Assembly (NCBI GenBank): GCA_016840095.1
Contig: JAEOSZ010000078.1
Span: forward strand, 1-25,061
Direction of reading: 5' to 3'
DNA: 25,061 nt
DNA from: Candidatus Heimdallarchaeota archaeon
Lineage (GTDB): Archaea; Asgardarchaeota; Heimdallarchaeia; Heimdallarchaeales; Heimdallarchaeaceae
Below the pieces are notes generated by a model. The model was not told where the DNA came from. It saw only the letters and a program-made list of their open reading frames with translations, and searched no databases. Made by a program: the position numbers and the translations under genes. The stretch's first letter is position 1. The number at the start of each line of letters is the position of its first letter. This document shows, piece after piece, positions 7,048 through 25,061 of this stretch.

Positions 7048-8016
7048 TTATTTCTTCTTGGACTTCTCTTCCTTTGGCTTCTCTTCCTTAGGAGCTTCTT
7101 TCTTAGCTTTTTCTTCCTTAGGAGCTTCTTTCTTAGCTTTTTCTTCCTTAGGAGCTTCTTTTGGTTTTTTAGTTTTATCTTCTTTTTCTGTCTTTGAAGC
7201 TTTTTCTGTTTTCTTAGCTTTAGAAACCTTATCAACTTCTTCCAGTTCTTCGAACTCGTCTTTTGGTTTCTTCTTCTTTTTGTCTTTTTCCTCAGCTATT
7301 TTTTCGAGTTCTTCATCAATATCTGGAAATTCTTCTAGTTCTTCAATAACTTCTTCACTAACTTCTTCAATGATTTCTGGTTCTTCTACACCAGTATCAA
7401 CAATCATAGATGTGGAAGTTGGTTCAGCTTCAATAGCGATATCATCTGGTAAAATCGCATCTCCTCTCATGATTCGAACTTGAACGCCAATTAGTCCACG
7501 TCGAATAAGGGCTGTTGCTTTTCCTATATCAACAAATGTTTCTGCAGGATCTCCTGCTTTTGCTACAAATCCAGCTCTAAAAGTTTCAACTCTAGCTCTT
7601 TGACTTGTAATCTTTCCACTAATCTTAATTTCAACACCTTTTGCTCCAATTGATAATATACGTCTAATGATTCCATGAGCACTTCTACGGAAATGACGAC
7701 CTCTCTCTAAGGAGGATGCTAAACGATATGCCATGATTCGAGAATCAAGTTCTGGATTTTCTACTTCTGTTACTTCAATTTGAGGATTATCCAATTCATA
7801 TTGTTCTCGTAAAGCTTCAGTTATTCTGTGTATATTTCTTCCTCTCCCCCCAATGGCTAATCCTACTCTTCCTACTCGAAGAATTACACGATCTCCTAAA
7901 GGTGTTCTTCTAAGTTCAACTCCCCCATATTCAGCATTTTTCAATTCTTTAGCCAAATACTCATCAATTGCATTTCTTTGATATTTCTTTAATAGATAAT
8001 CTTTTGTTGTAGGCAT
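7048..8016 (-). CDS. rps3: 30S ribosomal protein uS3 with ~125-aa charged C-terminal tail
   Basis: KH domain IGGRGRNI; GAKGVEIKISGK; G.IGVQVRI. Start is ATG 8016 or GTG 8025. Confidence 0.96.
   Translation of the reverse strand: MPTTKDYLLKKYQRNAIDEYLAKELKNAEYGGVELRRTPLGDRVILRVGRVGLAIGGRGRNIHRITEALREQYELDNPQIEVTEVENPELDSRIMAYRLASSLERGRHFRRSAHGIIRRILSIGAKGVEIKISGKITSQRARVETFRAGFVAKAGDPAETFVDIGKATALIRRGLIGVQVRIMRGDAILPDDIAIEAEPTSTSMIVDTGVEEPEIIEEVSEEVIEELEEFPDIDEELEKIAEEKDKKKKKPKDEFEELEEVDKVSKAKKTEKASKTEKEDKTKKPKEAPKEEKAKKEAPKEEKAKKEAPKEEKPKEEKSKKK
7082..7161 (-). repeat. 30-bp tandem repeat (~2.7 copies) encoding KEAPKEEKAK in the uS3 tail
   Basis: TCTTCCTTAGGAGCTTCTTTCTTAGCTTTT repeated perfectly on the + strand. 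Confidence 0.95.
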
Positions 8017-8021
8017 AATTC

Positions 8022-8486
8022 TCACATCTCGGCTACTTCAGCTACTAATTCTACATGGACAAATTGTCTCACTTTAGGTGATGAGCTTCCATGAGCTCGA
8101 TAAAATATTGCTTGTTGTCTTGATCCTTGTAGAGTTACAGCATGAGTAATCCTACACCTATCTAATTGTAATTGGTTATTTTCTGCGTTGTTTTCTAAGT
8201 TCTTTACAACTCTAAGAATTTCATTTGCAGCTTTTACAGGATATCTGCCACCTGTCCAACCTACTACAGTACTTTTGTGCCCAACATTTCTTTTGAAACG
8301 CTTGTATGGAACTGCAAGTTTCTTGTCAATTACTGCTTCAAGAAATTCAATAGACTGATGAATTGTCATACCTTTAATTGTGTTACAAATTTCGCGAGCA
8401 GCCTTTCTACTGATTTCTATGTCTCTTGCAGAAGCTTTGGCTGATCTGTCGGGATCTGTTTGAACTGAATATTTGTATTTTGGCAA
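8022..8486 (-). CDS. rpl22: 50S ribosomal protein uL22
   Basis: ISRKAAREICNTIKG, GRYPVKAA, YRAHG; TTG start after AGGAG. Confidence 0.96.
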   Translation of the reverse strand: MPKYKYSVQTDPDRSAKASARDIEISRKAAREICNTIKGMTIHQSIEFLEAVIDKKLAVPYKRFKRNVGHKSTVVGWTGGRYPVKAANEILRVVKNLENNAENNQLQLDRCRITHAVTLQGSRQQAIFYRAHGSSSPKVRQFVHVELVAEVAEM

Positions 8487-9669: not shown

Positions 9670-10254
9670 ATGAAACAAACAAAATCAAAACAACCCCGAA
9701 AGCAGAGGAAGAGTCATTTTCAAGCAGAATATCACATTCGAAATCGTAAAATGACCGCTCCATTATCTGATGCATTGAGAGAAAGATATGGCATTCGTCG
9801 TCTTCCTATACACGCTAATGATAAAGTAATTGTTTTCCAGAACAGATCACAAGATGAAGAAGTTAAAGGAAAAGTTATCAGAGTTTTACCACAAAGATAT
9901 GCAATTCATATTGAAGGGCACAGTAAAGAAAAAGCAGATGGTACAATTGTAAGTTTTCCAGTCCATCCTAGCAATGTTGTGATAACTTCTCTAAATTTGA
10001 GAGATAAAAAGAGACGAGCTATGATTCAGCGAAGATCTGTAAAAGATATAACAGAAGAAGAATTAGCTGAGGATATCTTTGATGAAGATGAAGAATTAGT
10101 AGAAGAAGTAGAAGATTTGGATATGCTAGATGATGAAGATATCCTCGACGAGGAATTCGAAGATATCGAAATGGATGAACTAGACGTATTAGAAGAATTA
10201 GCTGAAGGAGAAGAAGAAACTCCTGAGACTGAAAAAGAGGAGGAATCAGAATGA
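9670..10254 (+). CDS. rpl24: 50S ribosomal protein uL24 with ~69-aa acidic tail
   Basis: SKQPRKQRK, APLSDALRERYG, HPSNVVIT. Confidence 0.96.
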   Translation: MKQTKSKQPRKQRKSHFQAEYHIRNRKMTAPLSDALRERYGIRRLPIHANDKVIVFQNRSQDEEVKGKVIRVLPQRYAIHIEGHSKEKADGTIVSFPVHPSNVVITSLNLRDKKRRAMIQRRSVKDITEEELAEDIFDEDEELVEEVEDLDMLDDEDILDEEFEDIEMDELDVLEELAEGEEETPETEKEEESE

Positions 10255-12790: not shown

Positions 12791-12842
12791 CACCAGCAAG
12801 TAGGTAGCATAATTACAAGGTAACATTCTACCGTGAGTGCCT

Positions 12843-13370
12843 ATGACAGTCAATAAAAAGAGATTGTTGGAAAAACGCAAGGAAATCAGTGCCCGTAGAC
12901 CTAAGTTTGTACGTCAAGAAAGTTGGCGATACAAAAGATTAGGTAAAAGCTGGAGAAAGCCTAAGGGTATTGATAACAAAATGAAAGAAAAACGTAAAGG
13001 CGTTCCTGCAATGGCAAGCGTTGGTTATAGAGGACCAAAAGCTGTCAGAGGTCTACATCCTTCGGGTTATCAGGTAGTTCATGTTGCAAATATCTACGAG
13101 CTTGATGCAGTAGATAAAGAGACTGAAGCAGTTATGATTAAACATACTGTTGGGTCTCGTAAACGGCAAACAATTCTTGACACAGCAGCAGATTTGGGTT
13201 TGAAAGTACTTAATCCACCCGCTCGAATTGAAGAGTTTGGTGAGGTACTAGAAGATACCCTGCTTGAGGAAGAATACGAACTATTGGATGAAGATTTCGA
13301 GTTGGATGAAGATTTCGAGTTGGACGAAGACGTTGAATTAGATGAAGAATCGGAGGATGATTCTTCGTAG
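12843..13370 (+). CDS. rpl32e: 50S ribosomal protein eL32 with ~46-aa acidic tail
   Basis: RPKFVRQESWRYKRL, WRKPKGIDNK, RGLHPSG, KVLNP. Confidence 0.96.
   Translation: MTVNKKRLLEKRKEISARRPKFVRQESWRYKRLGKSWRKPKGIDNKMKEKRKGVPAMASVGYRGPKAVRGLHPSGYQVVHVANIYELDAVDKETEAVMIKHTVGSRKRQTILDTAADLGLKVLNPPARIEEFGEVLEDTLLEEEYELLDEDFELDEDFELDEDVELDEESEDDSS
13284..13349 (+). repeat. 18-bp tandem repeat (LDEDFE-type, ~3.7 copies) in the eL32 tail
   Basis: TTGGATGAAGATTTCGAG twice perfectly, then two degenerate copies. Confidence 0.9.
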
Positions 13371-23368: not shown

Positions 23369-23452
23369 GCCAGGATACTCAAGCGGTATGAGGCTAGATT
23401 GGAAATCTAGTGCCTATTCGGTTCCGGGGTTCAAATCCCCGTCCTGGCTCCA
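23369..23452 (+). tRNA. tRNA-Ser(GGA), CCA encoded, U73 discriminator
   Basis: Acceptor GCCAGGA/TCCTGGC; anticodon arm CTAGA-TTGGAAA-TCTAG; 14-nt variable region; T arm CGGGG-TTCAAAT-CCCCG; T + CCA. Confidence 0.93.
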
Positions 23453-23510: not shown

Positions 23511-23532
23511 TCATTTACGCTCTCAAGCTAAA

Positions 23533-23641
23533 GTCATTTGTGCAATTTAGAAAATGTTGGAAAGCACAAGGCGAAGCTCAATGGATAAAATCCTTGTTCT
23601 GAACTTTCAGAAATAAAGAGCACCACAACTTCGGGTTGTGG
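23533..23641 (+). promoter_or_regulatory. candidate structured 5' leader RNA of rps13-rps4
   Basis: Several stems, including CCACAAC-TTCGG-GTTGTGG (see findings). Confidence 0.5.
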
Positions 23642-23669
23642 AATAGAAAAAACACAAAAGAGTGAAAAT

Positions 23670-24113
23670 ATGTCATTTCGCCATTTAGTTAGGATAAAGT
23701 CTACAGATCTTGAAGGAAATATGCCTGTTTCTATGGGTCTTTCAAGAATAACTGGAGTTAATACTCGATTAGCTCAAGCAATTACAAAAATACTGAACAT
23801 TCCTACATCAGAACGTATTGGTTTTCTTACTGATGCTAAAATAAAGGAAATAGAAACTGTTATTGGTGATCCGGTTGCTGCTGGAATACCAGAGTGGTTG
23901 GTTAATCGAAGGAAAGATCGTCAAACAGGTGATAATATACACATCACTGAAGCACAGCTGATCTTGCAGACTAAGCAGGATATTGAAAGATATATCCGAA
24001 TACGAAGTCGTAGAGGAATAAGACATCAATTTAAGCTTAAAGTAAGGGGTCAAAGAACCCGAACTCATGGTAAGAGGGGAACCACCGTTGGTGTTTCCAA
24101 GAGGAGAAGGTAG
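23670..24113 (+). CDS. rps13: 30S ribosomal protein uS13
   Basis: FRHLVRI, IPEWLVNRRKD, RGIRH, LKVRGQRTRT. Confidence 0.97.
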   Translation: MSFRHLVRIKSTDLEGNMPVSMGLSRITGVNTRLAQAITKILNIPTSERIGFLTDAKIKEIETVIGDPVAAGIPEWLVNRRKDRQTGDNIHITEAQLILQTKQDIERYIRIRSRRGIRHQFKLKVRGQRTRTHGKRGTTVGVSKRRR

Positions 24114-24123
24114 GGTGGAATAA

Positions 24124-25061
24124 ATGGGTGGAATACGAAAATACAGAAAGAAAATTCTTACTCCTGGTCATCCTTATGATAAAGATCGTATTGAACGAGA
24201 GTTGCCTTTAGTTGGTGAGTATGGATTACGAAATAAAAAGGAATTGTGGAAAGCTAGAACACTATTATCAAAAGCAAGACAACAAGCTCGTGCTCTTCTA
24301 GCTTTAACACCAGAAGTTAGAGAACAAAGAGCAACTGAATTATTATCTCGATTAACTCGTTTTGGTATGTTGCCAAAGGGTGGAGATCTCGATTCTGTTC
24401 TTGCACTAGATGTTAAAACTGTACTCAATCGCAGATTGCAAACTGTGGTTTATAAAAAAGGATTAGCATCTTCACCTTATCAAGCAAGACAATTCATAAC
24501 ACATAGACACATCGCATTAAACAGAGCAGTTGTTACTTCACCTGGTATGCTTGTTAAAATAGATGAAGAGGAGAATATTGATTATGCTCCACGATCACCT
24601 TTAGTAAAGCCTGATCATCCATCAAGACCACAAGCACCTCCGACTCAAGTTGAAGCACCTCCTGTAAAGAAAGAAGGTCCAAGAGGTAAACCTAAACCTG
24701 CTCCTGAGAAGAAACCTCCAGCAAAACCCAAACCTGAAGTTAAAGAAGAAAAGCCCCCAGTTGAGAAGAAACCTCCAGCAGAACCTAAACCTGAGGTCAA
24801 GAAAGAAAAACCTCCAGTCGAGAAGAAACCTCCAGCAGAACCTAAACCTGAGGTCAAGAAAGAAAAGCCCCCAGTCGAGAAGAAACCTCCAGTTGAGAAG
24901 AAACCAGCTGCTCCTAAAGCTGATATCTCAGAAATTAAAGGTGTTGGAGCCAAAACAGCAATGCTTCTTAAAGAGCATGGTTTTGATACAGTCGATAAGG
25001 TAGCTAAAGCTAAACCTGAAGATTTATCCAAGGTTCCAGGAATTGGTCCTGCTACAGCAGC
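24124..25061 (+). CDS. rps4: 30S ribosomal protein uS4 fused to a Pro/Lys/Glu repeat linker and a tandem HhH domain (3' truncated by the window; absent from the ORF track)
   Basis: Hand translation: TPGHPYDK, EYGLRNKKELWK, LNRRLQTVV, QARQFITHRHI; reading frame open to the window end. Confidence 0.96.
   Translation, partial: MGGIRKYRKKILTPGHPYDKDRIERELPLVGEYGLRNKKELWKARTLLSKARQQARALLALTPEVREQRATELLSRLTRFGMLPKGGDLDSVLALDVKTVLNRRLQTVVYKKGLASSPYQARQFITHRHIALNRAVVTSPGMLVKIDEEENIDYAPRSPLVKPDHPSRPQAPPTQVEAPPVKKEGPRGKPKPAPEKKPPAKPKPEVKEEKPPVEKKPPAEPKPEVKKEKPPVEKKPPAEPKPEVKKEKPPVEKKPPVEKKPAAPKADISEIKGVGAKTAMLLKEHGFDTVDKVAKAKPEDLSKVPGIGPATA
24706..24906 (+). repeat. 57-bp tandem repeat (3 copies plus partial copies) encoding EKKPPAEPKPEVKKEKPPV
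   Basis: GAGAAGAAACCTCCAG starts at 24706, 24763, 24820 and 24877 (period 57); extra GAGAAGAAACC at 24895. Confidence 0.95.

Follow-up and report, generated by a model that had tools for sequence, protein, structure and literature searches.

Why should a universal ribosomal protein carry, at the end of a long flexible tail, a second folded domain of the tandem helix-hairpin-helix, or (HhH)2, type, and is a gene of this layout real? The question is raised by the end of a 25,061-nt stretch of Candidatus Heimdallarchaeota archaeon DNA (hereafter the window), which is the whole of contig C63. A reading frame that opens at ATG 24124 (+ strand) runs there for 312 codons and is open as far as the window end. 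Its first part (24124..24627, +; aa 1-168) is a uS4 core of the archaeal/eukaryote type (Pfam PF00163/PF01479), with the S4 N-terminal domain at residues 16-83 and the S4 domain at 103-148 (E 6.5e-13). The core is followed by a low-complexity linker of Pro, Lys and Glu (24628..24921, +), recognized by composition and structure modelling, and the linker by an (HhH)2 domain (24922..25061, +), of which aa 267-312 lie in the window and 15 more in contig C49. Pfam identified the latter as HHH_5 (residues 268-312; E 5.3e-13, 49.7 bits against a curated cut-off of 27), as the original prediction had expected. In the structure model, likewise, the uS4 core is confidently predicted, the linker is disordered and the C-terminal domain folds on its own; the modelled core matches uS4 of archaeal 30S subunits (for example 9fny_AE, E 1e-14, 49% identity; range 48-51%).

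The gene could be completed beyond the window, whose final 127 nt are identical to the start of reverse-complemented C49. An overlap of 127 nt recurs at most linked contig ends in this assembly, and a 60-mer at the C63 end is absent from all other contigs. The joined gene encodes 327 aa, about 160 more than archaeal uS4, and the stop that is missing from the window proved to be a TAG 15 aa beyond its end, with uS11 (PF00411) beginning 8 nt further. Upstream lies uS13 (23670..24113, +; PF00416), and uS4 is the single match in the genome, a single copy within the uS13-uS4-uS11 operon; archaeal uS4 (S4p) has the same 168-aa core, S4 domains, fold and position between uS13 and uS11. A tRNA-Ser (23369-23452) precedes uS13 and is followed by a structured leader (23530-23672, folding z -3.2). 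Downstream of uS11 (L001, G000:C49) two C2H2 zinc-finger-like ORFs occupy the place where RpoD is expected, so that the usual operon is broken past uS11.

The linker had been described as some 95 residues of Pro, Lys and Glu with 19-aa repeats, and this proved accurate: it has 98 aa (31 P, 27 K and 16 E, about three-quarters of the total; net charge +12) and includes 3.3 non-identical tandem copies of a 57-bp (19-aa) unit (24706..24892, +; repeat analysis). The original prediction had itself named misassembly across this repeat as a danger. Many relatives' assemblies do break within the linker, and two chimeric-looking entries (P0123 and P0183), set aside as probable chimeras, bear the module on unrelated proteins. 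That two genes were joined artificially over the repeat is nevertheless of negligible probability, the chief reason being that the layout recurs in 42 distinct closed homologues; in ten other genomes the gene is intact, on a single contig and ahead of uS11. Independent unitigs from public runs also span both junctions, core to linker at 24174-24792 with zero mismatches and linker to HhH at 24795-24986 and 24837-25061; they stop at the 57-bp repeat, and the repeat number is taken from this assembly alone. The repeat copies differ from one another at 9, 7 and 2 nt, chiefly at third positions, and the 127-nt assembly overlaps are longer than the 57-bp unit. The proposed fusion of uS4 to an (HhH)2 domain on a flexible leash is thus real, as attested by the joined gene, Pfam, unitigs and closed homologues, the independent assemblies disposing of the misassembly.

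The two parts added to uS4 differ in how they vary. The linker is modelled without secondary structure (pLDDT about 50) and predicted to be disordered; its calculated reach is about 35 nm in contour at full stretch and typically about 7 nm. Across the 42 homologues its length ranges from 56 to 191 aa and its net charge lies between -7 and +28, so that the leash is constrained solely to length and flexibility, with the domain itself maintained. Both Gly-hydrophobic-Gly (GhG) motifs of that domain (GVG at 24940-24948 and GIG at 25039-25047) are kept in all 35 uS4 modules compared, and the patterns G-x-G-x-K-T-A-M and P-G-x-G are invariant over 36 modules of uS4 and uL24. At two helix positions of the module that are normally polar, a Met is invariant and a hydrophobic residue conserved; this Met-Leu pair, exposed to judge from the HhH pattern, looks like a protein-binding patch. 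Net charge is near neutral (-4 to +2). In pairwise comparisons with this genome, dN/dS comes to about 0.08-0.3 in the module, against 0.05-0.2 in the core, and the fusion is by this measure under purifying selection.

Models and fold matches agree on a bundle of five helices that contains two HhH motifs, each with its GhG hairpin, which bears out the proposed kinship with RadA, the NusA acidic repeats and eL32. The best fold matches are N-terminal domains of RadA/Rad51 (TM 0.75-0.83, rmsd about 1.4, 36-39% identity), at Foldseek E-values of 0.015 or weaker because the domain is so small. RadA and Rad51 place their module ahead of a RecA-type ATPase, whereas the uS4 arm has none and ends at a stop followed by uS11; separate RadA genes occur in this genome, and the uS4 module has both GhG loops intact. 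NusA AR2 bound to alpha-CTD is likewise a top structural match (Z 8.0, rmsd 1.8, 56 aligned), and a Rad51 N-lobe with a bound histone tail matched as well. NusA AR1/AR2 share the fold, and like the uS4 module they are appended flexibly to an RNA-binding protein, but they are acidic and tandem, whereas the uS4 module is neutral, single-copy and has canonical GhG loops. The alpha-CTD partner of the NusA repeats is bacterial, and to our knowledge has no archaeal counterpart. An ESM Atlas feature search with the module returned generic HHH_5 clusters alone, under 0.9, and a two-copy complex prediction of the module, run without controls, scored 0.00, a value that weighs neither way.

The closest known case, and one with solved structures, is haloarchaeal eL32 (L32e; PDB 1JJ2/1S72 chains and the 9L94 series), likewise a ribosomal protein joined through a linker to an HHH_5-type module; the uS4 module matches its residues 7-66 with E 2e-4 to 5e-4. 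In eL32 the module is N-terminal on a protein of the 50S subunit, whereas the uS4 arm is C-terminal on the 30S, has a Pro/Lys/Glu leash with tandem repeats and occurs in one genus. As a design, the tethering of an (HhH)2 to a ribosomal protein is therefore already known, and it is the uS4 version that is new. Our literature search, which covered few subscription papers, found no paper on uS4-HhH, uL24-HhH or eL33-HhH fusions, in keeping with the earlier supposition that the uS4 fusion was undescribed, and none that gives the eL32 HhH domain a function.

Nor is the uS4 architecture widespread, the other circumstance that might have made it familiar; among the Asgard uS4 examined it is confined to one genus. 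Its nearest named homologues are Heimdallarchaeaceae, including AB_125, and the fusion was seen in 22 of the 25 genomes of this Heimdallarchaeaceae genus: closed in 11 (this genome counted as joined), interrupted by an N gap in two, and in nine represented by the HhH half, which lies at the end of a contig immediately ahead of uS11 or a uS11-like start. In the remaining three, uS4 is cut off by the contig end, and no second half was recovered. Six genomes from four sister genera (the gene is closed in five of the six) have uS4 tails lacking the module, and so do 14 long uS4 in other Asgard; of 239 Asgard uS4 matches, the 150 with the highest scores were considered, and in these a long frame bearing the module was confined to this genus. 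One entry labelled Thorarchaeota (P0029) equals the G003 uS4 in length and has an identical tail, and was not counted as wider spread. On the uS4 core tree three changes of state are required; the uS4 module may have had a single origin followed by losses, and P0044 and P0053, which are without it, look like a nested loss. As the sister genera lack the uS4 module, and at least one nested lineage (these two) does too, it is dispensable outside the clade.

The same module recurs on other ribosomal proteins. In seven genomes of the genus it is carried by uL24, and these copies nest at three places among the uS4 modules in the module tree, with 75-83% identity to the nearest uS4 module and 56-65% between uL24 groups. 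A single origin of the uL24 modules is rejected (AU p 0.002, for a group named when two placements were already visible in an earlier tree), and the module was copied from uS4 to uL24 in three lineages. The only eL33 (L35Ae) candidate of this genome, found by profile search (292 aa; L003:2783-3658 = G000:C128, - strand), consists of an N-terminal HhH, a long basic repeat linker and a divergent L35Ae barrel that falls under the Pfam cut-off; its profile matches in the PDB are exclusively eL33. HhH-eL33, in some cases with two HhH, occurs across the genus, in further families of its order and in two Asgard families at a greater distance, a spread that makes this fusion older than that of uS4; many other Asgard have a plain eL33. 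A profile search found no eL33 in 16 genomes of a same-class family (f5), where it may be lost or too divergent. The HhH-eL33 of G153 is likely bin contamination, as a second, plain eL33 is present in the same genome. Profile searches further disclosed modules on eS25 (two, C-terminal) and eL32 (two to four, N-terminal) in other Asgard, named Thor/Loki by their sources, and on the RNA polymerase subunit Rpo6 (two, C-terminal) in other archaea (entries P0213, P0175, P0139, P0155, P0228 and, for Rpo6, P0181); an HhH-type Rpo6 fusion has been noted in Thorarchaeota (PMC13257274).

The module tree has few columns and leaves the donor of the uS4 module unplaced. The closest paralogue within this genome (57% identical; the eL33 module reaches 41%) is in a 551-aa protein with two HhH modules (L002:3141-4793 = G000:C165, + strand), which is conserved across the genus as a family with one or two C-terminal modules closest to that of uS4, and is a possible donor. 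Its N-terminal domain of about 120 aa has no family match and drew nothing in the ESM Atlas feature search; it also has repeated LxKPSE and LKKRET-like motifs, which we take to resemble, loosely, the WH2/thymosin actin-binding motifs. In several relatives its gene lies about 6 kb from eL33.

What the arm might do is best approached from the features that these modules share. (HhH)2 domains bind the nucleic-acid backbone without sequence preference, and the intact state of both GhG hairpins points to weak, sequence-blind backbone binding in this case. A site-specific job is unlikely for a module found on either subunit and at either terminus, with a leash of drifting length, and its near-neutral charge leads us to expect low affinity. 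We therefore favour, at a probability of roughly 45%, a weak, position-independent hold, blind to sequence, on nucleic acid in double-helical form, with RNA as the probable ligand. uS4 would fold and join the small subunit as normal, its C-terminus leaving the ribosome surface as a disordered leash of about 100 aa that ends in the (HhH)2 domain, and the domain would grip the sugar-phosphate backbone through its two GhG hairpins and the Lys/Thr that follow. Since the duplex abundant near a ribosome is RNA, the likeliest ligands would be surface rRNA helices, of its own or a neighbouring ribosome, or structured mRNA. Given the fusions found, ribosomes of the genus would have an arm on uS4 and another on eL33, and in some genomes a third on uL24, adding weak avidity irrespective of position, for example by keeping ribosomes attached to RNA or to one another. 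We infer, rather than observe, incorporation into the ribosome, nucleic-acid binding, the choice of RNA over DNA and the cellular purpose of the arm; characterized relatives of this HhH subtype bind DNA or proteins.

Those relatives supply the main rival to a nucleic-acid grip, namely a docking arm whose module would bring a particular protein to the ribosome (a factor or chaperone, an adaptor linked to the cytoskeleton, or a further HhH module) in the manner of NusA AR2 or the Rad51 N-lobe. The invariant Met and its hydrophobic companion at usually polar positions, common to both modules of the 551-aa protein, speak for docking, as do the neutral charge and the two structural matches with bound protein. 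We consider it unlikely all the same, for the two GhG loops that bind backbone show full conservation, something the protein-binding NusA repeats are not known to need; the Met-Leu pair is missing from eL33 modules, and no linked partner gene accompanies the fusion. A tolerated passenger, in which a promiscuous module settled on pre-existing low-complexity tails and was kept as a folded, harmless cap, would fit the losses, the lineage's habit of spreading HhH modules onto unrelated proteins, and the long charged tails without HhH present here on uS3 (window 7048-8025), uL24 (9670-10254, +; profile search), eL32 (12837-13370) and uS11 (L001:7070-7819, - strand; about 110 aa of N-terminal Lys/Glu). 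The tails of uL24 and eL32 are acidic, and the eL32 of this genome is accordingly no HhH-eL32. Retention of the uS4 module in 22 of 25 genomes, dN/dS well below 1, invariant surface motifs and repeated gains on ribosomal proteins leave the passenger reading weakened and, to our minds, improbable. Least probable among the functional proposals, and a long shot, is an extra-ribosomal regulator, free uS4 binding its own operon leader or promoter through the arm as in the autoregulation of bacterial S4; the structured leader ahead of uS13 would suit it, but HhH domains do not read sequence, and the uL24 and eL33 copies, in other loci, would be left unexplained.

The original prediction had put forward a flexible arm that binds nucleic acid and, by way of example, a transcription-translation tether at the mRNA entry. 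The arm survives as the best reading, the tether no longer as the lead. In the latter, extended to the nucleoid, the arm would tie the lead ribosome to RNA polymerase, Spt5 or template DNA; (HhH)2 domains are classically DNA-binding, and NusA AR2 binds bacterial RNA polymerase. We know of no alpha-CTD on archaeal RNA polymerase, a lack that tells against the tether, and Spt5, the standard route, is present. The tether gains from the similar modules on Rpo6 in some archaea (P0181; PMC13257274) and from the alternative coupling routes of bacteria (PMC8116511). What makes it rather doubtful is that copies sit on large-subunit uL24 and eL33, far from mRNA entry, as well as on eL32 and eS25, that eS30 occupies the mRNA entry channel of archaeal/eukaryote-type small subunits (PMC11698992), the picture of uS3/uS4 as a helicase being a bacterial one (PMC8116511), and that CARD-FISH of Heimdall cells revealed a gap of 0.18 µm (~180 nm) between DNA and ribosomes (PMC8776820), against the ~35 nm of maximum linker reach. 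The CARD-FISH probe matches exactly in 11 genomes of the genus, all relatives, as this genome has no assembled 16S, and it also matches genera without the uS4 arm. Dormancy of the cells or their fixation may account for the gap, which is compatible with a minority of coupled ribosomes.

Several independent recruitments to ribosomal proteins point to a selected activity of the module. A broader conjecture, improbable as it stands, is that Asgard ribosomes have repeatedly been armed with leashed (HhH)2 grips, old on eL33 and newer on uS4, uL24, eS25 and eL32, and that such multivalent arms might crosslink ribosomes with RNA, with one another or with an adaptor, helping to organize the ribosome-rich zone apart from DNA imaged in Heimdall cells. 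The fusions represent lineage-specific additions, in archaea closely related to eukaryotes, to a ribosomal protein that is universal, and the domain, at about 60 aa, is easy to assay, with haloarchaeal eL32 as a genetic model. Their significance is tempered by the eL32 precedent, by the narrow range of the uS4 fusion and by a functional role that we infer. Because the linker breaks assemblies and the fused eL33 falls under the Pfam cut-off, ribosomal protein inventories of Heimdallarchaeia may be wrong.

Further HhH-like modules occur in this genome outside ribosomal proteins. The HhH profile did not match a 3313-codon ORF on C114. A RadA paralogue with a 467-codon frame and two degenerate N-terminal HhH-like modules lies on C49 (L184, G000:C49 ~98280-99680), with another RadA on C4, and a 226-aa protein (L004:2324-3001 = G000:C126, + strand) combines a helical N-terminal part with a C-terminal HHH_5 module and has matches of similar frame length in many members of the genus.
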